A stretch of DNA of 64,000 bases from an uncultured Clostridia bacterium (GCA_937896905.1 CALBOE010000006.1:382232-446231); one strand, 5' to 3'; numbered from the stretch's first letter, positions 16,213 to 39,769 are shown. Notes: generated by a model from the letters alone, not told the origin. A program made the numbers and translations.

Positions 16213-16222
16213 GAGGGAGAAC

Positions 16223-17065: not shown

Positions 17066-17093
17066 TAGAATTAACTAAATAAAAGGGAAGAAA

Positions 17094-18988: not shown

Positions 18989-18990
18989 AC

Positions 18991-19875: not shown

Positions 19876-19883
19876 GAGAAGTT

Positions 19884-20984: not shown

Positions 20985-21005
20985 ATAATAATCAGGAGAA
21001 AACAA

Positions 21006-21947: not shown

Positions 21948-21949
21948 AA

Positions 21950-24296: not shown

Positions 24297-24343
24297 TGGA
24301 GCTGATAACGGGAATCGAACCCGTGACCTCCACCTTACCAAGG
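24297..24343 (-). pseudogene. 3' half of a tRNA-Thr(GGU) gene (position 30 to CCA), distal att remnant of the island
   Basis: Minus strand reads CCTTGGTAA-GGTGG-AGGTC-ACGGG-TTCGATT-CCCGT-TATCAGC-T-CCA. No D-arm or 5' acceptor adjoins it. Acceptor strand TATCAGC pairs perfectly with GCTGATA of the 5' halves at 39811-40008. Confidence 0.9.
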
Positions 24344-24376
24344 AAATCCATAATAGAAAAGGGTAATACATCACAT

Positions 24377-24407
24377 CAAAAAACCACCTATTTTTAAGGT
24401 GGTTTTT
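24377..24407. terminator. Bidirectional terminator at the island's left end (ends the GNAT/Fic operon)
   Basis: AAACCACCT (24381-24389) pairs with AGGTGGTTT (24397-24405), flanked by A-run and T-run. Confidence 0.75.
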
Positions 24408-24497
24408 GCTATTCCAAAATACATTTCCATACAAACCAAAACTAAAAGTGTTGCAAAAGTATGGAGTAGGGGTATTTTAATGCAAATAATAGGGGTT

Positions 24498-24971
24498 TTA
24501 ACCCAATTTTTCTTCGTTATACCATTTCATACCAGCACCAACATCTTCGTTAGGTCTAGATTTAAAACCAAATCTTTCATAGAAACTTTCACGGTCTTTG
24601 CTCGCGTTTAAATATAAGAATGTATCATCATCCTGGATTGACTTGTACCAATTAACAATTTCACCAATAATGATCGATCCAAATCCTAAACCTTGAAATG
24701 CTTTATCCACAACAACATCATAAATTGTGAAATAAGAACCATCTCCAACAACTCTGCCCATACCAACAATAATATTATCTAAATACAAACTTACCGCAAA
24801 TGTTGAATGTTTTTTATTTTTAGAAACTCTTTTAACACTTCTTTCCCAATCAACACTATTAAATAGTTTTATAAATTCCTTATTGCTAGGCATAGAATAT
24901 TTTACCACAACAGTTTTAACCAATGCTGGTTCAACTTTATCATTATAAACAACAATCTTTTTAGTTTTCAT
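24498..24971 (-). CDS. GNAT family N-acetyltransferase
   Basis: 'VVVDKAFQGLGFGSIIIGEIVNWY' acetyl-CoA binding motif (Q/RxxGxG), 'FYERFGF'. Confidence 0.85.
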   Translation of the reverse strand: MKTKKIVVYNDKVEPALVKTVVVKYSMPSNKEFIKLFNSVDWERSVKRVSKNKKHSTFAVSLYLDNIIVGMGRVVGDGSYFTIYDVVVDKAFQGLGFGSIIIGEIVNWYKSIQDDDTFLYLNASKDRESFYERFGFKSRPNEDVGAGMKWYNEEKLG

Positions 24972-24979
24972 AACAACTC

Positions 24980-25882
24980 CTAATATTTAACTTGGAAATA
25001 ATCCAATAATCTTTTGTATAGGTCTTGTCCAAATCTGCAAGTTTCAATTAAATAGTTTTTATCAATATTCCATTCTTTAAGTCCACGGTAGTATTCAACT
25101 TTGTAATTGTCATCAATGTAGAAAGGAACGATGTTGTTTTTCAAACATTCTTTAAATGCGATAAGGCGACCAACTCTTCCGTTTCCATCTTGGAATGGGT
25201 GGATATTTTCAAAACGATAGTGGAATTCCACAATATCTTCAAAGGTTACATGTTTAATTGAGTTGTACCAGGTTAATAGTTTTTTCATTTCACTTTCAAC
25301 TTTATTTGGTTGAGTTGTTTCAATGCCACCAACAGTATTAGGTAAAACTTTATATTTGCCAGCACCGTACATCTTTGAATGTTCCGTTCCTTCTTTTAAA
25401 AAGTATTGAAGATTGGTAATTAATCTTTCGCAAAGTTCTGCTTCTGCAAAATCGATAATATAGTCCACGCATTTAAAGTGATTATTGGTTTCAATGATAT
25501 CATCTAGGTTGATATTAGAAGGTAAGTTGCCAATGGTCTTAGTTTCAAAGATATAACGTGTTTGGTCTTCTGTTAATCTGCTACCTTCAATGTGATTAGA
25601 ATTGTAGGTTAATTTGATTTGAGTTTCGTGGTACAATCCGTTTCCTAATTTAAACATTTTTTCATTACGAAGAGTTTGGAGAATGTGGTTCACTTCCAAC
25701 ACATCTTCAAAAGAAGCATCTAAGTAAATCAATATCTTACCAACAACAGAGTCGTTAATATCTTCGCCTTTACTGATTTTAGCAATGGTGCGAGAAGAAA
25801 TGCCCAATGTTTCACATAATGCTGATTTTTTTATGCCCTTTCTTTTAAGTAACTCATTAAATTTTTGCTCATTAATGATCAT
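24980..25882 (-). CDS. HTH (XRE-type) + Fic domain protein (AMPylase family, class II with internal inhibitory motif)
   Basis: Start moved to the ATG at 25882 (GGAG RBS). HTH 'KKSALCETLGISSRTIAKISKGE'. 'SNHIEG' = [ST]xxxE[GN]. Fic motif 'HPFQDGNGRVGRL'. Confidence 0.9.
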   Translation of the reverse strand: MIINEQKFNELLKRKGIKKSALCETLGISSRTIAKISKGEDINDSVVGKILIYLDASFEDVLEVNHILQTLRNEKMFKLGNGLYHETQIKLTYNSNHIEGSRLTEDQTRYIFETKTIGNLPSNINLDDIIETNNHFKCVDYIIDFAEAELCERLITNLQYFLKEGTEHSKMYGAGKYKVLPNTVGGIETTQPNKVESEMKKLLTWYNSIKHVTFEDIVEFHYRFENIHPFQDGNGRVGRLIAFKECLKNNIVPFYIDDNYKVEYYRGLKEWNIDKNYLIETCRFGQDLYKRLLDYFQVKY

Positions 25883-25892
25883 ATAAACTCCT

Positions 25893-25981
25893 AAATCTTT
25901 ACTTATATTATCATATTGTTTCAAAAAAGTAAAGATTTTAAGTAAAATTATTAAAAAAAGTAAAGATTTTAGTCTTTACTT
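25893..25981. promoter_or_regulatory. Four copies of AAGTAAAGA(T/C)T in alternating orientation (candidate operator upstream of the HTH-Fic gene)
   Basis: Inverted copy at 25893-25904, direct copies at 25927-25938 and 25958-25969, inverted copy at 25973-25981. Confidence 0.5.
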
Positions 25982-26214
25982 AAAAATAGTTTTTTGCATA
26001 ACTTATAGGTTATTTCGATTGCCTTATCTATCTCAATGCAAGATAGGGCACTTTTTTCTAAATCAATATTAAAGTATTCTCGCCATTTTTCTTTTGAAAA
26101 CTCTTTGGTAAAAGCATCTTCAAGTTCGCAGATTTTTTTCAGTTGCAATTTCTCTTCTGCCGACATGGGTTCTTGGTCTAGCACTTCGTGAACCAATTCA
26201 ATTATTTGTTTCAT
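25969..26214 (-). CDS. Small hypothetical protein (81 aa)
   Basis: Helical and acidic. N-terminus 'MKQIIELV' parallels the neighbouring 77-aa protein 'MNKIIDLV'. Confidence 0.5.
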   Translation of the reverse strand: MKQIIELVHEVLDQEPMSAEEKLQLKKICELEDAFTKEFSKEKWREYFNIDLEKSALSCIEIDKAIEITYKLCKKLFLSKD

Positions 26215-26218
26215 AATG

Positions 26219-26452
26219 CTACCTCAAGTCAAACACATCTTTGCAAACATTGTAGGTATGAATGATATGCTCATCAATATCAAGTTTATGTAATTTATAA
26301 ATTTGTTCCAACAATTCATTAAACAATGTTGCCTGGTTTTCTGTGAAAGTGGAAGTTAAATTCTCCTTGATATGCTGAATTGTGATGCTTTGTTCAAAAT
26401 ATTTGTGAGAATTTTTAAAACTTAAACCTACAAGATCAATAATTTTATTCAT
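26219..26452 (-). CDS. Small hypothetical protein (77 aa), paralog-like to the 25969 gene
   Basis: GGAGG RBS. Similar size and N-terminus to the neighbour. Contains 'STFTEN'. Confidence 0.5.
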   Translation of the reverse strand: MNKIIDLVGLSFKNSHKYFEQSITIQHIKENLTSTFTENQATLFNELLEQIYKLHKLDIDEHIIHTYNVCKDVFDLR

Positions 26453-26542
26453 AAGACCTCCTAAAAGTGTTTGTGTTGTACCGTACTTTCAATTCTTTTG
26501 CAAGTGTTTTTTAGTTAAAATTTCACTGTGCGTAGAAAAAGA

Positions 26543-26764
26543 ACATACACTACATACACTTCCTACACTAAAAAGCACACAATTACCTATAAATAAGGCT
26601 AAAACTCAACAAAATGAAACATTATACCAACATACACCTAACATACACTAATATACACTCAACATACACTAAAAAATTAGCAAAAACATGGAAAACAACA
26701 AAGTATCCCAACGCATTTATACACTTATACATAATTACATCAAAAGTGTATGTAGTGTAGGGTG
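26543..26764. repeat. Array of ACATACAC(T)-type 8-9 bp repeats in a divergent intergenic region
   Basis: Direct copies at 26543, 26552, 26562 (CCTACACT), 26630, 26641, 26651 (ATATACAC) and 26662. Inverted copies in AAGTGTATGTAGTGTAGG at about 26744-26761. Confidence 0.8.
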
Positions 26765-26851
26765 TTTTCTTACGCAAATTATAAAAGTTTATAAAAATGC
26801 AATACAAATCGAATAAATTATGCTATAATTATACCATTAGGAGATTATACA

Positions 26852-27616
26852 ATGGAAAAAGCAGGTGTAATTTATATTTTAACCAATCCATCATTCCCAG
26901 AATATGTGAAAATTGGTTACGCAGATGATGTTAATAAAAGATTGGCTCAATTAAACAGAAGTGAGTGCATTCCTTTTGCGTTTAGAGTTTATGCAACTTA
27001 TGAGGTGAGTTCTAGGTTATCAGATTTGAAAATACATGAGATCATTGACAAACTAAATCCAAACTTAAGATCAATCGATAATTTTGAGGGTAAAAAAAGA
27101 GTAAGAGAGTTTTATGCAATGACTAAAGAAGATGCCTACTTTATCTTAGAAGCAATTGCTGAGATTCATGGATGTACAGATAAACTAAAAAGAATTCAAC
27201 CAACAAAAGATGAACAAGTTGATGAAGAAATTGCTGAAAGAATTGAAACCGAAACTGGAATACGTAGAGGTAATGATCCTATAACTAAAGAAGAATATTT
27301 ATCAGCAAAGAAGGTTGATATGGTAAATCTATATAAAAAGATAGAGCAACGATTACAAGAAGAATTGCCAGAATATGAAGAATATATTTTACCTCAATAT
27401 ATTGGTTTAAAGAAAAATGGGAAATATTTTGCAGAATTTCATTTGCAACAAAATAAAATTCAAATAATGACTTTATTGCCAGATGGAAAGTATTCATTAG
27501 GAAACAAAGTTCCAGATAACTTTTTGTGGACTTTAAAATATAGAATTTACATGTCTAATGAAAAAGAAATAGAAGAATTGATAAGTATAATAAAAGAATC
27601 TTACAATAAAAGATAA
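26852..27616 (+). CDS. T5orf172 (GIY-YIG-like) domain protein
   Basis: 'GVIYILTNPSFPEYVKIGYADDVNKRLAQLN'. TGCTATAAT extended -10 and AGGAG RBS upstream. Confidence 0.78.
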   Translation: MEKAGVIYILTNPSFPEYVKIGYADDVNKRLAQLNRSECIPFAFRVYATYEVSSRLSDLKIHEIIDKLNPNLRSIDNFEGKKRVREFYAMTKEDAYFILEAIAEIHGCTDKLKRIQPTKDEQVDEEIAERIETETGIRRGNDPITKEEYLSAKKVDMVNLYKKIEQRLQEELPEYEEYILPQYIGLKKNGKYFAEFHLQQNKIQIMTLLPDGKYSLGNKVPDNFLWTLKYRIYMSNEKEIEELISIIKESYNKR

Positions 27617-27623
27617 TAATTTA

Positions 27624-27654
27624 AAAAGCAGTAAATCTAATTACTGTTTTTTTT
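27624..27654 (+). terminator. Rho-independent terminator
   Basis: CAGTAA (27629-27634) pairs with TTACTG (27641-27646), followed by T8. Confidence 0.65.
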
Positions 27655-27697
27655 ATTTATTAAAATCACTTGTTTTTTTATTTTTTATATGTTAAAC

Positions 27698-27727
27698 TTA
27701 GACTAAATTTAAACTATATTTAGACTA
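27698..27727 (+). promoter_or_regulatory. Two direct TTAGACTAA repeats 21 bp apart (candidate operator of the R-M operon)
   Basis: TTAGACTAA at 27698-27706 and 27719-27727, directly upstream of the RBS/ATG of the AbrB-like gene. Confidence 0.5.
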
Positions 27728-27738
27728 ATGGAGTTGAA

Positions 27739-27927
27739 ATGATAATTAAAAAAAATGTGATATATCAGAAGGATAGGAGAATACGATTGCCAGAACAAAT
27801 TGAAAACAATTTGGGTTGGATAGGGGGAACAACAAACTTAGATATTATAATAGATAAAAATAAAATCATAATACAAAAATCAAAAGAAATAAAACCAAAC
27901 AATTATGGTAAAAAGGAGAAAATATAA
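27739..27927 (+). CDS. AbrB/SpoVT/MazE-fold small DNA-binding protein (putative controller of the R-M operon)
   Basis: 'DRRIRLPEQIENNLGWIGGTTNLDIIIDKNKIIIQK' fits the looped-hinge-helix pattern. TAATG overlap with the next gene. Confidence 0.6.
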   Translation: MIIKKNVIYQKDRRIRLPEQIENNLGWIGGTTNLDIIIDKNKIIIQKSKEIKPNNYGKKEKI

Positions 27928-30371
27928 TGGCAGTAGAAGAACATGTTAAAGGATTAATGACAAATAAAATTATTAATACTGAAGGATATCCGTCGATGCA
28001 AGACAAATTGTCAAAAGAAGGAGTCGTTTGGTATAAAGAAGAAAGTTATCAAAAAATAAATCCTAAAATTGAGGCTATGTTAAGCACGGCATCAAAATCC
28101 TTAAAAGGCAATAAACCAGGAACTCCTGATTTCATGATAGAAACCCCTTCTTTTTATATAGTTATTGAAGCTAAGGGAATAGAAAAAGGAAATAAACATA
28201 AACATAGTAGATTTGCCGATGTAACTAAATATATTAAAAGGTCTGCAACAAGAGATGATGAGGTATATGATACTGCTTCAATTACAAATAGAGAATGTGC
28301 AATTGATGAGGCTCTTTATTATGCAACATTTTTAAATTTTGAAAAAGATGTGATTGCTATAGCAGTGTCAGGTACTGAGAAAGATTCAGATTTTAGATTT
28401 ACTTCTTTCTTGTTGCCTAAAGGGCAAAATTTGTCTCAAATTTCACTTATAGAGGACGGTGGGTTAAGCGGCACATTTAATACTGTCGAAAATTATAAAA
28501 GAGAAATTTACAAGGCATATGGTTATGAAGAAAGGTTGTATAGAGCGATTTACGAAGATTTGAGAAAATACGCAGATGCTTCAGCTAAATTTTTGAATAC
28601 TAACGGAGTTGATGAAAATGACAGATTAGGTTTAGTGTCTGCAATAGTTTTGGCTTTGACAAATAAAAAATCTGATTTATTTAAAAAGGTTTATAGTAAT
28701 TCAAAGTTGGATATTTCACCAGAGGAAATAAAAAACGCTTTACTATCAGAAAATCAGCCGTTAGGAGTTGTGATTGAAGATAAACTTCCTGCAGAAAAAA
28801 GAAATACTCTAAAAGCCTATTTCAATGCACTGCTAGATAAACCGTTTTTGACAAGGAAAATAAAAAGTAAAGATGGAAAAGAAGTTAATACAAAGAATTT
28901 TTTTGAAATAAATAAAGGTTTTACGGATAGTATATTATCCAGATTAACATATTCTCTCTATGAATTTATTGTCAAGGTTTACGACCAATATCAAAACAGT
29001 AATATTGATGTTATGGGGTCTTTTTATTCTTTGTTTTTGCAATATGCAAAAGCGGACGTTAAGAAAGGAGTGGTATTAACACCAAAACATATTACAGAAC
29101 TGTTTTGTGATTTGGCTGAGTATTATCTTGGTAAAAAATTAAATCATAAAACACAAATTTTAGATATATGTACAGGATCTGGAGGGTTTTTAATTTCAGC
29201 ATTAAATAGAATTGATTTTAATATCGATAATGATAAATCTTTAAATTTATCTCAAAAAAAGGATGCAAAAAACGAGGCCAGAAAAAACTGCTTATTGGGA
29301 ATTGAATTAAAAGATTCTATGTTTGTTCTCGCCTATGCCAATATGAGGTTTCACAAAGATGGCAAATCATCATTATATCACGGTTCTTCGTTGTATAATG
29401 ATGCTGAAAAACTTGCGGACGGTTTAACTTTTCATGAAATCATTTCAAAAAATTATAAAGGAGAAGAGTTGTTAGATGATGACCAAAAAGTTCAGTTATG
29501 TGGCCCAGAAATAGGGATGATGAATCCTCCCTATGAAGAAGATGTTTTTGAATTTATAGATTCAATGCTTAAATATTTACGCAAAGGCGGAATTGGAATA
29601 GCAATAGTACCAATTAATACTCAAGGTGTAAATAGCGAATTAACAGACAAAAAGAATAATCTTTTAAAAAATAATACATTATTGGCTAGTATATTAATGC
29701 CACCAGATTTATTTAATGGAGTTAGAGGGTCTGGAGCTGCAACATCTACATGCATATTAGTTTTTAAGGCTCATAGTCCACACGAAGATTTCCTTGATAA
29801 TGGTGGATTAACATATTTAGCCGATTGGTCTGCTGATGGATTTAAATTAATTCCAAAACACGGAAGATTTGAAATAGATGATAAGTGGCACAATAAAAAT
29901 GATGGATATAAAAAACTATATATTGAAAATCTTAAAAGACAAATGGCTGAGCAGGATTATATTCTATCATCAGACTATAAGAAAGACATTCATAAAGAAG
30001 GATCTATAAAATCTATAAGAAAGCCTATTCATAAATTCGATCATATTGAAACACTGATAAAAAAAGACTCAAAAGGAAATATTATTTATAAGAAAAACAA
30101 GGTTGAAAGATTGGATAAAGATGGGAAAGAGATGTATAATAAAAAAGGAGTTAAGCTATATAATATAGAAACGGCTTTAGATGCTAATGGAGATCCTATA
30201 CCAGAAGTTGAAGAAAAAGAAATATATATCAATGAGGATTGGAATATTCTTGATTATATAAAAACTGATTATAATGAATTAAAACCTGAAAATTTTATTA
30301 AAAATATGCTAGACTATAATTTGTATATTTATATGAAAGAAAATGATTTGTTGGTCGACAAGGAGGATTAA
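27927..30371 (+). CDS. Fused restriction endonuclease / N6-adenine DNA methyltransferase (BcgI-A-like, Type IIB/IIG)
   Basis: N-terminal PD-(D/E)xK 'TPDFMIETPSFYIVIEAKG'. MTase motif I 'ILDICTGSGGFLISAL'. Motif IV 'GMMNPPYEED'. Lys-rich C-terminal extension. Confidence 0.8.
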   Translation: MAVEEHVKGLMTNKIINTEGYPSMQDKLSKEGVVWYKEESYQKINPKIEAMLSTASKSLKGNKPGTPDFMIETPSFYIVIEAKGIEKGNKHKHSRFADVTKYIKRSATRDDEVYDTASITNRECAIDEALYYATFLNFEKDVIAIAVSGTEKDSDFRFTSFLLPKGQNLSQISLIEDGGLSGTFNTVENYKREIYKAYGYEERLYRAIYEDLRKYADASAKFLNTNGVDENDRLGLVSAIVLALTNKKSDLFKKVYSNSKLDISPEEIKNALLSENQPLGVVIEDKLPAEKRNTLKAYFNALLDKPFLTRKIKSKDGKEVNTKNFFEINKGFTDSILSRLTYSLYEFIVKVYDQYQNSNIDVMGSFYSLFLQYAKADVKKGVVLTPKHITELFCDLAEYYLGKKLNHKTQILDICTGSGGFLISALNRIDFNIDNDKSLNLSQKKDAKNEARKNCLLGIELKDSMFVLAYANMRFHKDGKSSLYHGSSLYNDAEKLADGLTFHEIISKNYKGEELLDDDQKVQLCGPEIGMMNPPYEEDVFEFIDSMLKYLRKGGIGIAIVPINTQGVNSELTDKKNNLLKNNTLLASILMPPDLFNGVRGSGAATSTCILVFKAHSPHEDFLDNGGLTYLADWSADGFKLIPKHGRFEIDDKWHNKNDGYKKLYIENLKRQMAEQDYILSSDYKKDIHKEGSIKSIRKPIHKFDHIETLIKKDSKGNIIYKKNKVERLDKDGKEMYNKKGVKLYNIETALDANGDPIPEVEEKEIYINEDWNILDYIKTDYNELKPENFIKNMLDYNLYIYMKENDLLVDKED

Positions 30372-30373
30372 TA

Positions 30374-31525
30374 ATGAATTTAGAGACAAACAAATGGAAA
30401 AGGTTTTATATTAGAAATTTATTTGAATGCATGCAGTCTAAGGGGGATAATCAGGCGAAAGATTTAGAAGAAGGACAAATTCCTTTAGTTTCTGCAGGTA
30501 GTTTAAATAATGGAATTGTAAAATACATAGAAGAAGGTGATGGTGTAGCGGAGATTTTTGAAGCTGGTTGTATTACTGCGGATATGTTTGGCAAGTGTTT
30601 TTATCAGCCTTTTGATTTTTATGCGGTTTCACATGGAAGAATTAACATTTTAAGACCAAAACATAAAGAAATTAATGAAAGAGTATCTTTATTTTTAATC
30701 AATGTTATGGAACATGAATTTAGATTAAAATATTCTTATAATAGAATGTTGTCTCTTGAAAAATTGTTAAAAGAATCAATATGTTTGCCTTGTGGGTGTA
30801 ATGGTAATCCAGATTGGAATTATATGGAAAAATATATTGATTACTTATATAATACTTCTGTTAATAATCAAATAGAAAGAATTATTAAAATTTCAAATAA
30901 TGATAGAAATACAATTCAAAACATTTCCGGCAAAATAAATGCTGAAGATTTTAATTCTTGGGCTAATATAAAAGAACAAGATCCTGTTGATCTAAATACA
31001 GTGAATTGGAAAACTTTTAAAATAGGAAAATTGTTTACTACTTATACTGGTGGAGATTTAATACTTGGAAATGTTGAAGAAGGAGATATCCCTGTTGTTA
31101 CACATTCAGCTAAGAACAATAGTATTTCCGTATACACAAATGAAATTTCTGGAAGAAAACTTTTTGATCATAGAAACACTATAAGTTTAGCTGATAGGGG
31201 AACATTTTTTGCGACAATACAGCCAGAGGATTTTTATATAGGAACTAGGGTTAAAGCACTTGAATCTAAAAACAGTGATATAACAAAAAAAGCATTGATG
31301 TTTATTGCTTCAATAATTAATCTTGAAAGCTTTAGATTTAACTATGGAAGAAATTGCACGGGAGGTTTAGATAATCTAACAATTAAGTTACCTGCCCAAA
31401 TGAGTGGGGCTAAATATATTTTAGATAAAGATTGTAAATATTCATCAAAGGGATTTATTCCTGATTGGAGATTTATGAATTTATATATAGATGCATTACC
31501 ATATAGTTTAAAAATTATTAATTAA
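30374..31525 (+). CDS. R-M specificity subunit (HsdS / BcgI-B-like, two target-recognition domains)
   Basis: Two TRD halves each opening with 'W+(K/T)F.I..LF' ('NKWKRFYIRNLFE' and 'VNWKTFKIGKLFT'). Separated from the upstream gene by a 2-nt gap. Confidence 0.85.
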   Translation: MNLETNKWKRFYIRNLFECMQSKGDNQAKDLEEGQIPLVSAGSLNNGIVKYIEEGDGVAEIFEAGCITADMFGKCFYQPFDFYAVSHGRINILRPKHKEINERVSLFLINVMEHEFRLKYSYNRMLSLEKLLKESICLPCGCNGNPDWNYMEKYIDYLYNTSVNNQIERIIKISNNDRNTIQNISGKINAEDFNSWANIKEQDPVDLNTVNWKTFKIGKLFTTYTGGDLILGNVEEGDIPVVTHSAKNNSISVYTNEISGRKLFDHRNTISLADRGTFFATIQPEDFYIGTRVKALESKNSDITKKALMFIASIINLESFRFNYGRNCTGGLDNLTIKLPAQMSGAKYILDKDCKYSSKGFIPDWRFMNLYIDALPYSLKIIN

Positions 31526-31534
31526 ACCATTGTT

Positions 31535-31561
31535 AGAACGGATTAATTATCCGTTCTTTTT
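31535..31561 (+). terminator. Rho-independent terminator (copy 1 of a repeated hairpin)
   Basis: AGAACGGA (31535-31542) pairs with TCCGTTCT (31550-31557), followed by a T-run. Confidence 0.8.
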
Positions 31562-31629
31562 ATTAGTTTTAAGAAAACTTATTTACTTGTACGAATTTTA
31601 TGTTATAATATAGAAAACATGGAGATAAT

Positions 31630-32571
31630 ATGGCTTTTATAGATACATATAAACGAATAATGAAAGAAGGTTATGAAAAAATAGTTTATTCATACGATAA
31701 GACAGTTGGAAGATATGAATATAGACCTTTTTCACATGCCAATACTGTCACTTGGAAAGAAGACATTGTTGAGGTACTTATAAATAATCTTCTTAATTAT
31801 TGCTATGAGCCCAATGAAATAGGAGCAATATATAATCCAAATTTTCCAGAATTAAGAAAGTATATAAATAAAGCAATTAAAGACAGATTAAACAGAAAAA
31901 CTAAACAAGCTCAACAAGATGGGTTATGTGGTGAATTGTTAATAGATTTAATATTAAGGATGGAAAATGAGAACAATGAAATCTTGATATGCAGACCCAA
32001 ATATCAACAATTAGGTGCGATAGCTGAATTAAAAAATTATGATGTTTTAATGTTTAGAGCAGAGTTTAATAATAATATTACACTGATTTTAGGACAAGTG
32101 AAATCGGGAGGGTTTGATTATTGCACAAAAAATATGAAAGTAGACTTAGATACTAAATATAATGAAACATATTTTGGTAATGCGGTGTGTTATATTGCGG
32201 ATCGTCGAATTTCAGATGTTCCTAATAAAATTTTACTCAATATTATATCAGATTTAAATAGTATTGCGTTAGGAACAGATGATACTAATATACGAAATAC
32301 TAAAATTTGTGAGTATATAAAAAAGAATGACATCAAGATTGAAATACCGTGTCTTTTGCTGTATGGCAAAGAGTCTGTTTATTCTGATATAAATAAATTA
32401 AAAGAAAATTTGGACGAAGAAGTAGAATGTGTAAAACAATTTTTCGATGAACTATCTTTTAATATTTATGATTTTAATTTTTCAATTATTTTTTATGTAT
32501 TTCCTTCTAAAAGTATAACAGAATTAAGAAAAAGCATTATGGAGTATAAAGTTGAGGTGTTGAATGGATAA
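31630..32571 (+). CDS. HamA-like putative nuclease (Hachiman-type effector candidate)
   Basis: 'GELLIDL', 'NYDVLMF' and 'LGQVKSG' are arranged like an E...D...(E/Q)xK nuclease core. 8-nt overlap with the downstream helicase. GGAG RBS and extended -10 TGTTATAAT upstream. Confidence 0.55.
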   Translation: MAFIDTYKRIMKEGYEKIVYSYDKTVGRYEYRPFSHANTVTWKEDIVEVLINNLLNYCYEPNEIGAIYNPNFPELRKYINKAIKDRLNRKTKQAQQDGLCGELLIDLILRMENENNEILICRPKYQQLGAIAELKNYDVLMFRAEFNNNITLILGQVKSGGFDYCTKNMKVDLDTKYNETYFGNAVCYIADRRISDVPNKILLNIISDLNSIALGTDDTNIRNTKICEYIKKNDIKIEIPCLLLYGKESVYSDINKLKENLDEEVECVKQFFDELSFNIYDFNFSIIFYVFPSKSITELRKSIMEYKVEVLNG

Positions 32572-34981
32572 ATATATTGTACGAAACTTTATAGAATCAC
32601 TGAACAATTTTGATGGATCTGACGAAGGAAGGGAAATATTAAAAAATCATGTATGTTATATTTCAGAGCATAAAAACGAGATTGAAAAGACTTACCCAAT
32701 TGATGAATTGTTACATATTGCATCGCAAAAGCTTAAAGTTTTTGGTTATGATGAAATGAATAAAATTACTGCCATTGAGTTGTCAGATACATCTAGCATT
32801 GTTGATAACGCTGTTAAGAAATATCACGAATCTACAATGTCTTCAGAGAAAGAAAATGTTATATTAGATGGGCTGCAAAAGAACATTATAGACGAATATC
32901 AAAAACTTCAAAATAGAAGAATTATGGTGTCAGCCCCTACATCATTTGGCAAATCATATTTGTTGCAAGAGATACTTTATAACAATGCTCAAGAATATGA
33001 AAATGTTATGCTTATATTGCCAACAATTGCTTTATTAAATGAAAATGTTAATAAATATCAATCATTAATAAAAAAAGGAAAACTGGATTATAACATAGTG
33101 TCAACCAACTACGAAGACTTAAACATTAATTCTAGAAATCTATTTATATTTACTCCAGAAAGAGCTTTGAAATTTTTAGGCAAATATGATGTAAAAATTA
33201 ACTTTTTCTTCTTTGATGAGGTTTATAAAATCGAAGAGAGATTAGATATAACAAAAGATGTTAAATCTGGAGATGATGTTATAAGTGGAAATGATAAAAG
33301 AGCTGCGGCATTTAGAACATGTTTGTACTTGCTTGCCAAATCAGTAAAAGATTATTATATTGCTGGACCGTTTTTGGATTTGGAGAATAAAAAATGTGTT
33401 GGTTTGAGGAAGTTTTTAACTAATAATTTTGTTCAAATATTTCAAGTCAAGTTTGATCCTACACTAAGAATTACATATGATGCTTGGAAACTTGGTGATA
33501 TAACGGAAAATAATTTCGTTATTCCTGAAGTTAGATCATATAAAACACGATTAGATCAGCAAAACCAAATTGGAAAGTTGGAACGAATTAAAAAATTTAT
33601 TGATGAACACGATCTTGGTAAAACAATAGTATATATAAATTACCCATCGAAAATTGTTGAAATATTAAAGGTGGCTAAAATTTTTGATAACCAGCCATTA
33701 AAAAATAAAGAGCTTGAAGAATTTATAATTCATTTGAAATCTAAATATAACGTAAATATGAACGGGATTTCTAGCGTAGAATATTGGACCTTAATCAAAT
33801 GCTTAGAATTCGGTATTGGTATACATCATGGTAAGATGCCAAAGTATATACAAAACGAAATTTTAAGACAATTTAATAGACCAGATGGTTTGAATTATTT
33901 GTTTTGCACTTCAACAATTATAGAAGGTGTAAACACTGTAGCTAAGAATGTTGTAATGTTGTCAAATAGTCATGGATCTGGCGATATGAAAAAATTTGCT
34001 TTTAAGAATATTAAAGGTCGTGCTGGACGATATTACTCTAGTTTTATAGGTAATTTATTTTATTGTGATGCGGATCAGAAGAAACTTGATGATTCAGAAT
34101 ATATGCATCTTGAATTTTTAAATTATGGAGAGACTCCATTATTGCCAATTGATTTAGACAATACTGAAAAAGAAGATTTATCAAAGAATAACCATTATGA
34201 AAAAATGAAAAGAGAAAATAAATATAATAAAGATTTATTACCTGATGAGGTTTTCTATCAAAACAGATTATTTGATAGGTTAGAGCAAGAACAAATATTG
34301 AAAAAAATACTAAGTGAAGATAATTTTGACAGGCTATATGAGTTAACTCAAAAAGTAATAAGTCGTGGATTAAGTTTTTTAGCGTTGGTGAGAGAGGTTT
34401 TAAATTTAGAAGAAAATCTTCTTTTAGGTGATTCATTTATAACTCAGTCGGAGGATAGACAAAAAGAGATATTGAAAAAATATAAAACCAAACTTTATTA
34501 TATTTTGAAAGAATATGAGCAAGAAGGCTTTTCTGGATTATTAAAATATCAAATGCGACTGTCTAAATATTCAGATGAACTAAAGCAAGATATGGACAAT
34601 AAATACAATATTGTATTTGAACAAATAAGAACAACCATAGAATACGACATTCCTAAATATCTCAGCTTATATCAATCATTATTTAATCATGCTTGTAAGA
34701 TTAAAGACAAGGTTTTCGGGAATGGCGATCTTGATGATGTTATAAAATATTATGAAATTGGAGCATCTAATGACTTTGGTAGATTGTTAATAGAAAGAGG
34801 GTTTCCTAGCGAATCGGCTAAGATGATTGAATTTGAACTAAGAAAGACTCATATTGATTTTTTAAATAATGATAAGGTAATTCAGTATATAGATCAAACT
34901 CCAAATATAATTGCACATCTTGACGGATACGAAAAGAGATTGTATACAAGAATAATAGATTTATATAGAAAAGAAAAATAA
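32564..34981 (+). CDS. SF2 helicase (HamB-like)
   Basis: Motif I 'SAPTSFGKS', Ia 'LILPTIAL', II 'FFDEVY', V 'TSTIIEGVN', VI 'IKGRAGR'. Long helical C-terminal region. Confidence 0.75.
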   Translation: MDKYIVRNFIESLNNFDGSDEGREILKNHVCYISEHKNEIEKTYPIDELLHIASQKLKVFGYDEMNKITAIELSDTSSIVDNAVKKYHESTMSSEKENVILDGLQKNIIDEYQKLQNRRIMVSAPTSFGKSYLLQEILYNNAQEYENVMLILPTIALLNENVNKYQSLIKKGKLDYNIVSTNYEDLNINSRNLFIFTPERALKFLGKYDVKINFFFFDEVYKIEERLDITKDVKSGDDVISGNDKRAAAFRTCLYLLAKSVKDYYIAGPFLDLENKKCVGLRKFLTNNFVQIFQVKFDPTLRITYDAWKLGDITENNFVIPEVRSYKTRLDQQNQIGKLERIKKFIDEHDLGKTIVYINYPSKIVEILKVAKIFDNQPLKNKELEEFIIHLKSKYNVNMNGISSVEYWTLIKCLEFGIGIHHGKMPKYIQNEILRQFNRPDGLNYLFCTSTIIEGVNTVAKNVVMLSNSHGSGDMKKFAFKNIKGRAGRYYSSFIGNLFYCDADQKKLDDSEYMHLEFLNYGETPLLPIDLDNTEKEDLSKNNHYEKMKRENKYNKDLLPDEVFYQNRLFDRLEQEQILKKILSEDNFDRLYELTQKVISRGLSFLALVREVLNLEENLLLGDSFITQSEDRQKEILKKYKTKLYYILKEYEQEGFSGLLKYQMRLSKYSDELKQDMDNKYNIVFEQIRTTIEYDIPKYLSLYQSLFNHACKIKDKVFGNGDLDDVIKYYEIGASNDFGRLLIERGFPSESAKMIEFELRKTHIDFLNNDKVIQYIDQTPNIIAHLDGYEKRLYTRIIDLYRKEK

Positions 34982-34984
34982 CAT

Positions 34985-35013
34985 AGAACGGACTAACCAT
35001 CCGTTCTTTTTTT
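34985..35013 (+). terminator. Rho-independent terminator (copy 2 of the repeated hairpin)
   Basis: AGAACGGA (34985-34992) pairs with TCCGTTCT (35000-35007), followed by T7. Near-identical to 31535-31561. Confidence 0.8.
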
Positions 35014-35270
35014 AATGCTGTTTTTTACGAAATTTGGATAAAAAACGAGTTTTGCAACAAAAGTCGATACAATCGTGAGAAACTTTGCAACACTTTTGAA
35101 ACAAAATGGATAACCAAACTCGTATAATATATGTAGGCATACAATTAAAAATTTAGAAAAGCATTTTACAAATTTAAAAATAGAGACAATCTGAGAAAAT
35201 AAGAGACACTCTGATAAGAAATGAGACAACCAAACCTATATAATGATTGTAAGGAATCAAATTGCCGAAG

Positions 35271-35298
35271 AGAGAAGTTAAAAACACTTCTCTTTTTT
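35271..35298 (+). terminator. Orphan rho-independent terminator in non-coding DNA
   Basis: AGAGAAGT (35271-35278) pairs with ACTTCTCT (35286-35293), followed by T6. No ORF lies between it and the previous terminator. Confidence 0.7.
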
Positions 35299-35310
35299 AC
35301 TGAAAAAATA

Positions 35311-35626
35311 GTTTCGAATGGACAAATGCTGTCCGAACGGAATTTATAAAATATTAAAAAATATTTCCTGCTGTAAAAAATGTGTTTACAACGGGGTTAT
35401 TAAAATTTATTTGCAACTTGTTCAAATGGTGAACACATTGGCCTTGTACAATGTTTTCCGATACGACAAATGTTGTCGGAACGGGATTGTTTAAATTGTG
35501 AAAAAATATTCCCGCTATATCAAATGGTGATACAGCGGGCTTGGTAAAATAACAGAAAATTTTATAAAAAAGTTGTAAAAATATGTCCCGTGTGGTCAAA
35601 TGGTGAACACACGGGATTGATAGAAT
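35311..35626 (+). repeat. Six hairpins with a conserved CA-AATGN-TG apex, within ~100-bp degenerate direct repeats
   Basis: Hairpins at 35320-34 (GGACA AATGC TGTCC), 35367-95, 35420-34 (GTTCA AATGG TGAAC), 35464-78 (CGACA AATGT TGTCG), 35511-39 and 35587-615. Confidence 0.85.
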
Positions 35627-35743
35627 GTGGTTACCAATAACAATATTGGTTTTATCGATGGACTGCAGCCGTCGTTAAAATATAGCTAAAGTTAAGAACT
35701 GATCAATCTTAATGTAGGCACAAAATCTAAAAAAGGAGAAAGG

Positions 35744-36403
35744 ATGAGAAATTATATATTTGAATTTGATCAACAAATTGCCTTAAGGTTAGGGCTTAAA
35801 CTTAATGAACTTTTATTTCTAGATTACTTGGCGAAATTTATTAACAGTGGGAGTATGAGATGTAAGTGTATAGAAGGTAAAAGATATTATAGATTAACCT
35901 ACAAAAAGGTAATGGAAGATTTGCCAATTTTGAAAATAAAAGAAAGGCAACTTCGCAACATTATTATTTCGTTAGAAAATAAAGGAATATTACAAAGGTA
36001 TTCTGAGTTGAAAAATGAAATGCATATTTATGTGGATTATGATGTGCTTTTCGGCAACAAATTGCCAGATAAGTTTAACTTGTCGGAAGTTGGCTTCCAC
36101 GATGAAGGAAATGGACTGCTTACAATAGATTATTATGATATTAAAAAAATAAAAATATTAAATAATAGCGCACGCGTGAAAGAAATTGATAAGCAAGAGT
36201 TGTTCAATCATTTATTAGCAAACTTAAAATTGGCGTACGGGGATGTTCTATATAAAGGATTTATTGAAAATAAACTTGATATAGATGAAATAACTGATAC
36301 TTATATTTTGTTTGATATAGGAAATGTCAAAATAGTTGGACAAACTTATGGTGATAAATTTAAGAAAGCATTTGATGACACGATTGAACACTTATTAAAT
36401 TAA
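35744..36403 (+). CDS. Putative replication initiator / winged-helix protein (RepA_N- or DnaD-like N-terminus)
   Basis: 'LNELLFLDYLAKFIN...GKRYYRLTYKKVMEDLPILKIKERQLRNIIISLENKGILQR' follows the RepA_N-type wHTH pattern. AAGGAGAAAGG RBS. Confidence 0.5.
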   Translation: MRNYIFEFDQQIALRLGLKLNELLFLDYLAKFINSGSMRCKCIEGKRYYRLTYKKVMEDLPILKIKERQLRNIIISLENKGILQRYSELKNEMHIYVDYDVLFGNKLPDKFNLSEVGFHDEGNGLLTIDYYDIKKIKILNNSARVKEIDKQELFNHLLANLKLAYGDVLYKGFIENKLDIDEITDTYILFDIGNVKIVGQTYGDKFKKAFDDTIEHLLN

Positions 36404-36897
36404 CAAACCCCCAGGGGCGGTCAAATCTCTAGGCGAAAGGTTTTAAAGAGCGGGCAGGCAGTCGCACGCAAACTTTCGCAAAATCAAAAATCAAAAACGA
36501 AACAAATGAAAGGTTGATAATTGATTATAAATAAATGAAAAATCGATAGTTTTGATTTTTATAATAAATCAAAAAATAATCAAAATTATTCAAAAGATGT
36601 TGCTCGTCGGCAATTTTATGTTTTGTAAAGCCGTTATTTATGCGTTTTGAAAAACTTTATCAATTTTGGATAGATTGCCGATGAGAATATGTTTCGTGGC
36701 TTTAATAAAGCGTTTTGAAAGGAATTTGGCTAATCATAACAATATTTCAAGAATACAAAGTTTAAAAGATACAAAATTACAAAGTTACAAGATTACAAGA
36801 AAACAATTTAGAAAAATTTAAAATTAACACTGGACTTTAAAGGCAACATGCGGTTTAATGTGTGTTGCCTAAGGTTTAGTGATATCAAGGAGAAAGA
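36404..36897. repeat. Repeat-dense non-coding region (candidate origin / recombination-directionality control region)
   Basis: Relatively GC-rich stem GCGAAAG (36441-47) / CTTTCGC (36473-79). At least 7 (A/T)TCAAAA words in both orientations across 36484-36596. Inverted CTCGTCGGCAAT / ATTGCCGATGAG. Roughly 40-bp imperfect direct repeat ending GCGTTTTGAAA, two copies. TTACAA(A)G(A) 8-bp tandem at 36776-36800. Hairpin GGCAACA/TGTTGCC around 36841-36869. Confidence 0.7.
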
Positions 36898-37155
36898 ATG
36901 AGATATAACGAAGAACTAAACCAAAAGCAATTAGCAGATTTAGTCTCAATAGAAACCAAAAGATTGTGTGAAAAATACAATAAAGATTTTCTGGATTGTG
37001 AGGACTTAATCAAAATAACAAACTTGGGGAGAGATAATGTTCGTGCAATGATGCATAGAAGAGATTTCCCATTGTTAAAAATCGGTAGAAGAAATGTTGT
37101 AAATATCAGTAGTTTTGCTTACTGGTGTATTAAACAAACATATAAGGAGATGTAA
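36898..37155 (+). CDS. xis: Excisionase-family / MerR-like HTH DNA-binding protein
   Basis: 'DLIKITNLGRDNVRAMMHRRDFPLLKIGRRNVVNISSF'. Immediately upstream of the integrase (2-nt gap). GGAG RBS. Confidence 0.7.
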   Translation: MRYNEELNQKQLADLVSIETKRLCEKYNKDFLDCEDLIKITNLGRDNVRAMMHRRDFPLLKIGRRNVVNISSFAYWCIKQTYKEM

Positions 37156-37157
37156 AA

Positions 37158-38360
37158 ATGGCAAAAAGGAAAGCAACACGCCGTGGAAACGGAGAGGGTT
37201 CAATATGGCAAAGACCAGATGGTAGATGGCTTGGACAAATATCACTTGGTTACGATGAAGAAGGAAAACTTAAAAGAAAGACATTTTATGGAAAAACAAG
37301 AAGTGAAGTTTCGCTTAAAATGACATCCGAATTGAGTTATATAATGAAAAACGGATATCAAACAGTGTGTAAAGAAAAATTTGAAACAATATTTATGGAG
37401 TGGTTGTTGGTGTTTAAAAGGAACACAGTTCAAGCAAGAACATTTGAAAGAATACTAAGCAATGCAAAAACACATGTTATACCAGAACTTGGTAAATATG
37501 GTTTAGATGAAATCAATATGCAAGCCATACAAAAAATGATAAACAGATTATACCTAAAAGAGTTGTCTCTAGATGTGATTAAGAAATCAAAGCAAATAGT
37601 TGGACAGTTCTTTGAATATGCAATAGATAACGAAATGGCAATTAAAAATCCAACAGCAAAAATAAAAATTCAAAAAAGAGAGAAGCATATTGAAGATGCA
37701 CAAAGATACAAGGCAATTCCACCAGATAAAAGAGATGAGTTTATAAAAGCATTAGATAGTCAAACAATTCTCAAACCAATGTGCTTGGTTATGATGTGCT
37801 GTGGGCTAAGAATTGGAGAAACATTAGCACTAACTTGGAGAGATGTGGATATTGAAAGAAAGTTAATACATATAAACAGAGCGATAACAGTAGATGTTAA
37901 GATGGATAAATTAGGAAATGTGCTATCAAGAAAAACAGTTATAGGCGACACTAAAACAGCGTGTTCGGTAAGAATTGTGCCTGTGCCAGATAGTTTAATT
38001 CCTGTCCTTGAAGCTTGGAAAGAAGATAGATGGATTGAGGGCAAGAAACACAATGTTGACTTGCTTGCACCAGATAGCCTTGTGTTTGGCAAATATGATG
38101 GTGGAATTAGAACTTATAGAAACACACAAAACATATTCGATAGGTTCTGCAAACAAAATGGATTTGATAAACTAGGATTACACATACACGGACTTAGACA
38201 AACATATTCAAATATGCTATTCGAAAAAAGTGTAAATCCAAAAGTTATTCAAGGCCTACTTGGCCACAAAGACGTAAAGACAACAATAATGAACTACAAC
38301 TCAGTGGATAAATCATACTTCGATAGAATTTCAAACTTAATAAACGAACAATTTAAATAA
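37158..38360 (+). CDS. int: Tyrosine recombinase / phage-type integrase with N-terminal arm-binding domain
   Basis: 'GNGEGSIWQRPDGRWLGQISLGYDEEGKLKRKTFYGKT' arm-type domain. Catalytic 'GLRIGETLALTWRDVD', 'HGLRQTYSNMLF', 'LLGHKDVKTTIMNY'. Confidence 0.93.
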   Translation: MAKRKATRRGNGEGSIWQRPDGRWLGQISLGYDEEGKLKRKTFYGKTRSEVSLKMTSELSYIMKNGYQTVCKEKFETIFMEWLLVFKRNTVQARTFERILSNAKTHVIPELGKYGLDEINMQAIQKMINRLYLKELSLDVIKKSKQIVGQFFEYAIDNEMAIKNPTAKIKIQKREKHIEDAQRYKAIPPDKRDEFIKALDSQTILKPMCLVMMCCGLRIGETLALTWRDVDIERKLIHINRAITVDVKMDKLGNVLSRKTVIGDTKTACSVRIVPVPDSLIPVLEAWKEDRWIEGKKHNVDLLAPDSLVFGKYDGGIRTYRNTQNIFDRFCKQNGFDKLGLHIHGLRQTYSNMLFEKSVNPKVIQGLLGHKDVKTTIMNYNSVDKSYFDRISNLINEQFK

Positions 38361-38364
38361 AAAT

Positions 38365-38402
38365 AAAAAAGATTGGTTGAAATATACCAATCTTCTTTTT
38401 TA
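38365..38402 (+). terminator. Rho-independent terminator after int
   Basis: AAGATTGGT (38369-38377) pairs with ACCAATCTT (38386-38394), followed by a T-run. An extended -10 TGCTATAAT follows. Confidence 0.7.
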
Positions 38403-38435
38403 TATGCTATAATAGAAACGTACAAAGGAGTAATA

Positions 38436-39470
38436 ATGTCTATTGAATTACTTTTAGATAAGAAGATAACAAAAAACAAATTTAAAACATCAGAAAGAAA
38501 AATTATAAATATTAACAAAATAAAAGGTAATGAAAATTATGTGCTTTGCATTAATACCGAAATTTCAAATAATGAAGATGCGAAATTTTATTTATCAAAG
38601 TTAGATGAAATAGTTAAAATTGTTGAATTAAATGGAGCTAATTATACTATTGTAACAAATGAACCAAGTTGTTTTTTGCTAAAGAATCTATATCCATTAT
38701 GTCAATCATTTGAAAGTAAGTTAAGAAAGTTTTTACAAATAGCTCTATGCGATACTCAAGATATTCTAACTGAAGCATATGATGAATTAAAGAAAGAGGT
38801 AATAAAAAAAATCCCTGAAGGTAAAATCAATAGAGATAATTCAATTTTGGAATATTCTGATTTGTCAAATATTTTCACTTTCCTTTTTTCAGATAAAGAA
38901 GCTGTAGAAACTATTAAAAGTGATATTTTAAAAAGAAATAATAATTGGAAAATTCATCAGGATTTAAAGAATATAAAGGATAATACAATTTGGAATAAAT
39001 GTTTTAAAAACAAATGTAAGTTTTTTAATTTTGATAAATATTATGTTGAATTATATAACTATAGAAATGATGTTATGCATTTTCATAATATATCATATAA
39101 GGAGTATATTTCTGCAAAAAAGATATTTGAAAATGCTATCAGAGAATTAGAGCTTGAATTAAAATCAAACATTGTATTAAAGGCAACGGAAATTTTAGAC
39201 AATAAACTGTTTGCGACCTACGCGATAGATAAATTAATAAATGAATTAGTCCATAATTATAGACATCATAATGAAATTCTTTTACCTTTGCTTAAAACTA
39301 TCAGTAATTCTAATTACTTTATAAATAATAATCTTAGAAATATTCCAATTTCTTTTAAATCAAATTTAGCTAATACTATCAATTTATTGTGTGATTTAAA
39401 ATTTATACGACATAATGCTATATTGCCAGATAATCAAGCAGTTTGTCACGACGACAAAGATAGAGAGTAA
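38436..39470 (+). CDS. HEPN-motif protein (Abi/Swt1-like, putative abortive-infection RNase)
   Basis: Start moved to the ATG at 38436 (AAAGGAG RBS). 'YNYRNDVMHFH' contains the Rx4H HEPN signature in a helical context. Confidence 0.5.
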   Translation: MSIELLLDKKITKNKFKTSERKIININKIKGNENYVLCINTEISNNEDAKFYLSKLDEIVKIVELNGANYTIVTNEPSCFLLKNLYPLCQSFESKLRKFLQIALCDTQDILTEAYDELKKEVIKKIPEGKINRDNSILEYSDLSNIFTFLFSDKEAVETIKSDILKRNNNWKIHQDLKNIKDNTIWNKCFKNKCKFFNFDKYYVELYNYRNDVMHFHNISYKEYISAKKIFENAIRELELELKSNIVLKATEILDNKLFATYAIDKLINELVHNYRHHNEILLPLLKTISNSNYFINNNLRNIPISFKSNLANTINLLCDLKFIRHNAILPDNQAVCHDDKDRE

Positions 39471-39566
39471 TTTATTAACTGTGTTTATAAAAGTAATGCA
39501 AATGTATGCAGTGCGGGCATATTTAGACCGTAATTAGAACAATTTAGAACGAAAGTAAGAAAAATT

Positions 39567-39604
39567 AGAGTCAACAGTTTTTGACGACTGTTGGCTCTTT
39601 TTTT
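39567..39604 (+). terminator. Rho-independent terminator
   Basis: AGAGTCAACAGT (39567-78) pairs with ACTGTTGGCTCT (39587-98), followed by T7. Confidence 0.75.
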
Positions 39605-39662
39605 GTGCCATAAAATAAAAAAATGGCAGGGTTTAAAATTTTCAAATAAAATTACAGACATT

Positions 39663-39691
39663 AAAAAATCCCCTATATTATAGGGGTTTTT
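39663..39691. terminator. Bidirectional terminator directly 3' of the island tRNA-Thr
   Basis: CCCCTATA/TATAGGGG palindrome (39670-39686) flanked by A6 and T5. Confidence 0.75.
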
Positions 39692-39693
39692 CG

Positions 39694-39769
39694 TGGAGCT
39701 TATGACGGGATTCGAACCCGTGACCTCAGCCTTACCAAGGCTGTGCGCTACCTGCTGCGCCACATAAGC
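39694..39769 (-). tRNA. tRNA-Thr (anticodon GGU), complete, CCA encoded
   Basis: Hand-folded cloverleaf: GCTTATG-TG-GCGC-AGCAGGTA-GCGC-A-CAGCC-TTGGTAA-GGCTG-AGGTC-ACGGG-TTCGAAT-CCCGT-CATAAGC-T-CCA. All stems are Watson-Crick. Confidence 0.93.

Follow-up and report, generated by a model that had tools for sequence, protein, structure and literature searches.

A probable Hachiman (HamAB) system with a lineage-wide Gln-for-Glu substitution in HamA, on a tRNA-Thr island of an uncultured Clostridia bacterium

The hamA-hamB gene pair and its assignment

A stretch of 64,000 nucleotides from an uncultured Clostridia bacterium (GCA_937896905.1 CALBOE010000006.1:382232-446231; the window) was analysed, and positions 31630-34981 very probably encode a two-gene Hachiman (HamAB) anti-phage system carried as cargo of an island at a tRNA-Thr gene. 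An earlier reading made from the DNA alone (the sequence-only reading) had proposed a Hachiman-like HamA/HamB module here, and the HamA/DUF1837 profile, the HamB models and the fold comparison all agreed with that call. The system type is a known one; its sole unusual feature is a Gln in place of the catalytic Glu in this lineage of HamA. Two open reading frames (ORFs) with ATG starts were found on the plus strand, hamA at 31630-32571 (313 aa) and hamB at 32564-34981 (805 aa), with coordinates, sizes and overlap exactly as previously claimed. The product of hamA contains the DUF1837/HamA domain, and hamA lies directly upstream of hamB on the same strand in one operon. The junction reads ...GTGTTGAATGGATAAATAT..., and its 8-nt overlap ATGGATAA (32564..32571, +) holds both the hamB ATG start (32564) and the hamA TAA stop (ending at 32571), implying that translation of the two genes is probably coupled. 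A hamA-hamB pair with the same 8-nt overlap was present in 10 related loci, including L001, L006 and L010. Family matches were significant for both proteins, and a chance origin of the 805-codon ORF, in DNA with a GC content of about 28%, was ruled out.

HamB (32564..34981, +) was identified as a superfamily 2 (SF2), Ski2/Hel308-like helicase of the AbpB-like HamB1 type by matches in PADLOC, the PDB and Pfam. The PADLOC HamB1 model PDLC00184 matched it end to end (E=2e-95, residues 28-797), PDLC00191 matched residues 7-797, and 20 HamB models besides PDLC00184 matched in all; Pfam assigned DEAD and Helicase_C domains. A better match of the pair to another described system was looked for, and none scored comparably with the HamB models. 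The best PDB match was Escherichia coli AbpB (8zue_B, 1.8e-32), in an alignment that starts in the Walker A region, spans both RecA domains and takes in the C-terminal helical domain; HamB of ECOR31 (8vx9_B) matched at 1.2e-8 and over RecA2 only. All the motifs quoted in the sequence-only reading were present, namely GELLIDL (E102), NYDVLMF (D138) and GQVKSG (Q156, K158) in HamA and SAPTSFGKS, DEVY and GRAGR in HamB. Motif I/Walker A, SAPTSFGKS (residues 123-131, with K130; 32930..32956, +), aligned to SAPTSMGKS of AbpB; motif II/Walker B, FFFDEVYK (D218 and E219, with DEVY at 218-221; 33206..33229, +), aligned to DEFY; and motif VI, KNIKGRAGRY (GRAGR at 485-489; 34004..34033, +), has the identical GNIKGRAGR context in AbpB. 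The protein is therefore an SF2 helicase with intact ATPase motifs and with the N- and C-terminal regions specific to HamB.

Two departures from the canonical motifs, QxK for ExK in HamA and DEVY for DEAH/DExH in HamB, had been suggested to mark a distinct subtype. The first proved to be real and lineage-wide, as described below, but the second is ordinary. DEVY was kept in the HamB partners of both close and distant QxK HamAs, and it was also found in the HamB fragment beside the canonical ExK HamA P0075 (locus L013). Together with DEFY in AbpB, its occurrence next to an ExK HamA ruled out DEVY as a subtype marker.

The product of hamA (31630..32571, +) was assigned as a DUF1837/HamA nuclease of the PD-(D/E)xK fold, in a D-QxK variant, from Pfam, AlphaFold2 (AF2), Foldseek and hhalign results. 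A hidden Markov model search matched it to PF08878 above the curated cut-off (33.6 bits against 25) over profile positions 2-229 of 230, and this was the single Pfam domain in its 313 aa, so that no N-terminal effector domain is fused to DUF1837, as in type I-A HamAs. The AF2 model built from a 37-sequence alignment had a predicted local distance difference test score (pLDDT) of 89.9 and a predicted template modelling score (pTM) of 0.90, and it formed one compact fold with a helix-strand-strand-strand-helix topology in which E102, D138 and Q156/K158 sit on the expected elements. When this model was compared with the PDB by Foldseek, HamA of ECOR31 (8vx9_A, 1.7e-5) and AbpA (8zue_A, 2.6e-5), both at probability 1.00, were the sole significant matches, and all others had E>0.05. 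When the QxK group was aligned with ExK HamAs by hhalign, the match had a probability of 99.3% (E=9e-21) and LGQVK was placed on FGEAK.

Several results weigh against this assignment. The TM-scores between the model and the solved HamA structures were only 0.50-0.59; the PADLOC HamA models (HamA1/HamA2) gave 0 matches to the window HamA at E<=1; no NCBIfam model matched it; and neither phmmer nor a 12-sequence profile retrieved any PDB sequence even at E<=10. Since there was no sequence match in the PDB, the link to the solved HamA structures was made by fold comparison, and the assignment as a whole is built from a modest Pfam score, a predicted fold and profile-profile links. PHROGs had no match to the protein. 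The missing recognition by PADLOC is a limit of tool sensitivity and not a biological criterion, and the 313-aa protein is best described, from profiles and the structural model, as a divergent HamA.

The mechanism of characterised Hachiman systems has been worked out in E. coli and Streptococcus thermophilus (PMC12278908, PMC11914072, PMC13064477), and by homology with these the window pair would behave as follows. HamA (DUF1837, PD-(D/E)xK fold) and HamB (SF2 helicase) would associate 1:1, and HamA would be kept inactive within the complex. The trigger would be the engagement by HamB of a free 3' single-stranded DNA end or of damaged or replicating phage DNA. By binding and hydrolysing ATP, HamB would then remodel the complex and switch HamA on, and HamA would degrade DNA with little sequence specificity, by which the infection would be aborted. 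The complex, the trigger, the nuclease activity and the defence phenotype are thus expected for the window system by analogy with its relatives.

The D-QxK lineage of HamA and its active site

When 1.84 billion cluster representatives were searched exhaustively with a profile, only 92 HamA relatives were retrieved. For P0001, which is 100% identical to the window HamA, an exact look-up returned no contig. Thirty full-length representatives of the QxK lineage and the seven most distant ExK sequences were aligned (alignment A2, 37 sequences). The seven ExK relatives are canonical HamAs; two of them, P0075 and P0088, matched PADLOC HamA1 at 2e-108 and 4e-94, respectively. Motif I, DGLCGELLIDL (31918..31950, +), carries the invariant G98 and E102 and lies on helix 99-112 of the AF2 model; its counterpart in S. 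thermophilus HamA is G89/D90/E93 (PMC13064477). Motif II, AELKNYDVLMF (32023..32055, +), with a nearly invariant E133 and an invariant D138, leads into strand 139-144. Motif III, LGQVKSG (32089..32109, +), lies on strand 150-160, where K158 is invariant and Q156 (codon 32095-32097) replaces the canonical Glu. None of the 37 sequences, the most distant of which share 15% identity, departs from E102, D138 or K158. At position 156, Gln was present in 30/30 of the QxK-lineage representatives, at identities as low as 22%, and Glu in 7/7 of the distant ones (GE[VA]K). The window HamA has D138 and K158 but places Q156 on the Glu of GE[VA]K, where type I-A HamAs have an acidic residue (D/E). When all the retrieved representatives were scanned for the motif, 52 had GQxK and 8 had GExK. 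QxK is therefore no one-off and is fixed throughout a separate lineage of HamA.

Six residues were invariant in the QxK lineage and not so in the ExK relatives: H36, G160, C165, D172, N210 and Y251. C241 was also listed among the residues that are invariant or nearly so in the QxK lineage and not in the ExK relatives. D172 (codon 32143..32145, +), in helix 162-175 at K158+14, was present in all 30 QxK representatives and was not conserved in the seven ExK relatives, and it is a candidate for a relocated catalytic carboxylate. The lineage comprises approximately 50 clusters at 50% identity, and the representatives examined were all without a fused effector domain. Wherever the neighbourhood of a QxK hamA could be checked, as it could for close relatives and for P0020 (31% identical), the gene adjoins that of an AbpB-like HamB with DE-x-Y. 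QxK-lineage relatives cross-matched the PADLOC models PDLC00167, PDLC00171 and PDLC00166 at 1e-13 to 5e-25, which suggests that PADLOC has no model derived from this lineage; neither the PADLOC HamA models nor the NCBIfam models detect the sub-branch to which the window HamA belongs. A literature search, incomplete in its coverage, found no description of a Gln variant of DUF1837/Hachiman.

In characterised HamAs the active site is D-ExK (E138/K140 in ECOR31, E150/K152 in DEC14B and D127/E147/K149 in S. thermophilus; PMC12278908, PMC11914072, PMC13064477). We favour the reading that the QxK HamA is still an active nuclease whose site has been rewired rather than lost, because E102, D138 and K158 are invariant, no effector domain is fused to the protein and the lineage has gained an invariant D172. 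There are precedents for such a site. D-QxK is functional in the Cap4 domain of AbpA (D45/Q58/K60; PMC11914072) and in Mrr and LlaGI (PMC2790908), and in Cfr10I, where the motif reads S188-x-K190, E204 at K+14 stands in for the missing motif-III carboxylate (PMC3479162). By analogy with this spacing, D172 may supply the relocated carboxylate in the window HamA. Against an active site, the canonical motif-III Glu is absent, and mutating the Glu and Lys together abolishes defence in characterised HamAs. Moreover, the role proposed for D172 is drawn from its spacing and conservation only.

It could also be that the pair is Hachiman by descent and that its QxK DUF1837 is catalytically dead, HamA being no more than a scaffold or adaptor, the role proposed for HamAs of type I-B/C/D; killing would then depend on a different partner or on interference with DNA through HamB. 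Gln replaces the motif-III Glu across the whole lineage, and Cui et al. (PMC11914072) class DUF1837 without (D/E)xK as an inactive scaffold that recruits other effector domains. In loci L001-L009, moreover, a small ASCH-domain gene lies directly upstream of hamA. However, neither the window nor L010 has this gene, so there is no conserved third gene, and the HamA of 313 aa, matched by DUF1837 alone, has no extra domain. The strict conservation of E102, D138, Q156 and K158 down to 22% identity would be unexpected if the site had decayed; D-QxK sites work in AbpA-Cap4 and in Mrr/LlaGI; and the lineage-specific invariant D172 stands at a Cfr10I-type compensating position. We therefore consider a dead HamA unlikely.

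A stronger form of the active-nuclease reading is that the D-QxK lineage is a functionally distinct Hachiman subtype, its nuclease centre rewired to D172 and marked also by the invariants H36, N210 and Y251. This is a tentative proposal, and we hold it to be possible but doubtful. If it were true, metal dependence, cleavage preference or gating by HamB could change, and DUF1837 without (D/E)xK need not mean an inactive scaffold. As it stands, a D-QxK lineage without a substitute effector domain already challenges the rule that equates such a DUF1837 with an inactive scaffold. The Gln variant is genuine and lineage-wide, yet it alters a well-understood system only modestly.

Hachiman systems are present in over 5% of prokaryotic genomes, and how they work has been established; as one more of them, the window pair adds little. 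Its bearing on annotation is more practical. PADLOC v2.0.0 detected the helicase and not the nuclease of the window system, there is no NCBIfam model for its HamA, and one relative of the window HamA is named 'hypothetical protein' at NCBI. Tools that need both genes are therefore likely to overlook Hachiman systems of this branch in gut Clostridia, and such systems are probably under-counted.

Transcription signals, island context and related loci

The sequence-only reading had given the module its own extended -10 promoter and its own terminator, and both held up as predictions. The sigma-70-type promoter predicted upstream of hamA (31582..31609, +; TTTACT, 16 nt, TGtTATAAT) matches the consensus at 10/12 positions with TG present, and it was the top-scoring promoter site of the region. 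Because the count of promoter-like sites in the region was not above the shuffled expectation, support for this promoter comes from conservation and not from the scan: its -10 region, TTTTATGTTATAAT, was kept upstream of hamA in L006 and L010. A GGAG ribosome-binding site was read from the sequence at 31622..31625 (+), 4 nt upstream of the hamA ATG. Four nucleotides past the hamB stop, an intrinsic terminator (34985..35014, +) is formed by a hairpin at 34985-35007, AGAACGGA-CTAACCA-TCCGTTCT, followed by T7. This terminator was kept with identical stems and differing loops in seven related loci (L001-L003 and L006-L009), and the downstream hairpin was retained in relatives whose HamA was only 63-80% identical. 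A second terminator upstream of the pair (31535..31564, +; hairpin 31535-31557, AGAACGGA-TTAATTA-TCCGTTCT, with a T-run) ends the preceding S-subunit gene and insulates hamAB from the restriction-modification (RM) operon. From these signals, hamAB is predicted to be transcribed from its own promoter and stopped by its own terminator.

The hairpins on either side of the window hamAB share the same 8-bp stems (AGAACGGA/TCCGTTCT) and differ in their loops, and similar hairpins precede the conserved promoter and hamA in L006 and L010. This arrangement suggests that hamAB forms a portable terminator-promoter-operon-terminator module. In the related loci, hairpins were located at 7587-7606 in L001, at 8333-8352 in L006, and both upstream and downstream of hamAB in L010. 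Identical flanking stems as the footprint of an insertion were considered and rejected, since relatives whose neighbouring genes differ also have similar hairpins on both sides of the cassette. A search for an empty site of the hamAB cassette found none.

In relatives with 58-82% HamA identity, hamAB lies on other integrase-bearing elements with differing flanks (other RM systems, integrases and a primase-helicase gene). Because the same cassette occurs on differing elements with differing neighbours, it behaves as a portable defence cassette. Kiwa KwaA/KwaB stands beside hamAB in L001 (11827-13397) and GmrSD in L007 (30-2114), which fits an exchange of defence-island cargo. The ASCH-domain gene of L001-L009 encodes 110-112 aa (3880-4218 in L001 and 4545-4877 in L006); in the window and in L010 an S-subunit-like gene precedes hamA, and the absence of the ASCH gene from these two ruled it out as an obligatory third gene. 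The closest genome-derived copy of hamAB came from an uncultured Clostridia metagenome-assembled genome of a human-gut (Hadza) metagenome. When HamA was searched by tblastn against plasmid and phage collections, there was no match and hence no evidence of a plasmid- or phage-borne cassette.

In the window, hamAB is cargo on an island of approximately 15.4 kb (24344-39693) integrated at tRNA-Thr, beside an RM system. The tRNA-Thr(GGT) gene (39694..39769, -) is the integration site and the proximal boundary. The distal attachment site survives as a remnant at 24297..24343 (-), where the 3' half of the tRNA gene is directly repeated in degenerate form (41/47). A tyrosine integrase gene lies next to the tRNA (37158..38360, +; Pfam Phage_integrase, 1.1e-23). 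Other island genes encode a Fic/DOC protein with an N-terminal helix-turn-helix domain (24980-25924, -), a T5orf172 (GIY-YIG-like) and DUF5655 protein (26852-27616, +), a GNAT acetyltransferase, a small ORF and a 365-aa ORF of no assigned family. Proteins of the Fic/DOC and T5orf172 kinds are common in defence or toxin contexts. The RM genes at 27927-31525 encode an 814-aa protein with an N6-adenine methyltransferase at residues 359-689, then a 383-aa two-domain S subunit, with no HsdR. A PD...ExK-like motif, TPDFMIETPSFYIVIEAKG, was spotted by eye at the N-terminus of the 814-aa protein, and the two proteins together resemble a fused restriction-methylase of the BcgI kind, the S subunit being separate, rather than a classical type I system.

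Downstream of hamB, a non-coding stretch of approximately 750 nt precedes a 219-aa ORF with a weak match to replication initiators of phages (phrog_428, E=1e-4). Two imperfect repeats of approximately 95 nt, 144 nt apart and 71% identical, lie in this stretch, together with a repeated CAAATGGTGAACACA element with hairpins (35312-35550 and 35419-35454 / 35593-35628); these repeats may be iterons or an island origin. Rfam on 31300-37200 returned only a sub-threshold chance match (U4, 20 bits against a gathering score of 46). The region left of the island, 14938-23488, is a surface-polysaccharide biosynthesis cluster with a Wzy-like polymerase, five glycosyltransferases and a UDP-GlcNAc 2-epimerase; a weak sub-threshold MatE-like match in this cluster suggests a flippase. 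To the right of the island is the gene for aspartyl-tRNA synthetase (AspRS).

With such an initiator-like ORF and repeats just downstream, the pair might instead be a housekeeping or mobile-element helicase-nuclease acting in repair, recombination or island replication and not in immunity, the more so as HamB-type helicases are related to the Hel308/Ski2 repair helicases, and PolQ and Hel308 were among the weaker PDB matches. However, the defence HamB models and AbpB were the best matches by tens of orders of magnitude, the cassette is self-contained and stands beside varying RM, GmrSD and Kiwa KwaAB genes on different integrative elements, and the pair was not found in the plasmid and phage collections, which makes this explanation very improbable. 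Least probable of all is a different described nuclease-helicase defence system (Cap4/AbpAB proper, a DpdF-type system or a PADLOC candidate such as PDC-M23), as the weak PADLOC matches of the helicase to PDC-M23B (7e-13), Cas3d and DpdF cover approximately 100 residues of the RecA2 core whereas the HamB models match at full length, and HamA has neither Cap4/DUF4297 nor any other domain.

Comparison with known systems

The closest solved relative of the window HamB is AbpB of E. coli K-12 AbpAB (Hachiman type I-B, Cui et al. 2025; 8zue). Both helicases have DE-x-Y at motif II (DEFY in AbpB, DEVY in the window) and an identical IKGRAGR motif VI, and the window HamA model matched the DUF1837 domain of AbpA (TMq 0.56). 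AbpA, too, has D-QxK at the active site of its nuclease, but there the site lies in the N-terminal Cap4 domain. AbpA is a protein of 531-538 aa in which Cap4 is joined to a DUF1837 without catalytic residues, whereas the window HamA has 313 aa with its D-QxK inside DUF1837. Pfam found no second domain in HamA, such as the Cap4/DUF4297 that is fused to DUF1837 in type I-B, and only the helicase of the window pair is AbpB-like.

ECOR31 HamAB (8vx9; Tuck et al. 2024) and DEC14B HamAB of type I-A are likewise two-gene hamA-hamB operons. In both, HamA consists of DUF1837 only and is the nuclease effector, and its catalytic Asp and Lys are common to the window HamA; the difference lies in D-ExK (E138/K140 and E150/K152, respectively) against Q156/K158. 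HamB of ECOR31, with 1174 aa, a DEGH motif II and an oligonucleotide-binding (OB)-like C-terminal domain, is distant from the window HamB.

HamAB of S. thermophilus (type III-B; Tian et al. 2025), from a Gram-positive host, has the same HamA motifs as the window protein, G-D-x-x-E, D and E/Q-x-K. These residues were essential in mutagenesis except for the Gly, G89A being tolerated (PMC13064477), and the nuclease was active only when complexed with HamB. The S. thermophilus protein has E147-x-K149 and its genes are often linked to PezAT; the window system stands alone and has Gln at the corresponding position.

Outside Hachiman, the motif-III acid is replaced in sites of the Cfr10I/NgoMIV/Bse634I type and of the Mrr/LlaGI type: Cfr10I has Ser there, and Mrr and LlaGI have Gln. 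HamA has no detectable relationship in sequence to these enzymes, with neither an Mrr_cat nor a restriction-enzyme match in Pfam at E<=1, and the likeness is one of active-site configuration only. Cfr10I draws its carboxylate from E204, at K+14 in the next helix, and D172 of the window HamA is also at K+14 by sequence spacing. LlaGI, like the window pair, couples a D-QxK-type nuclease to a helicase-like motor.

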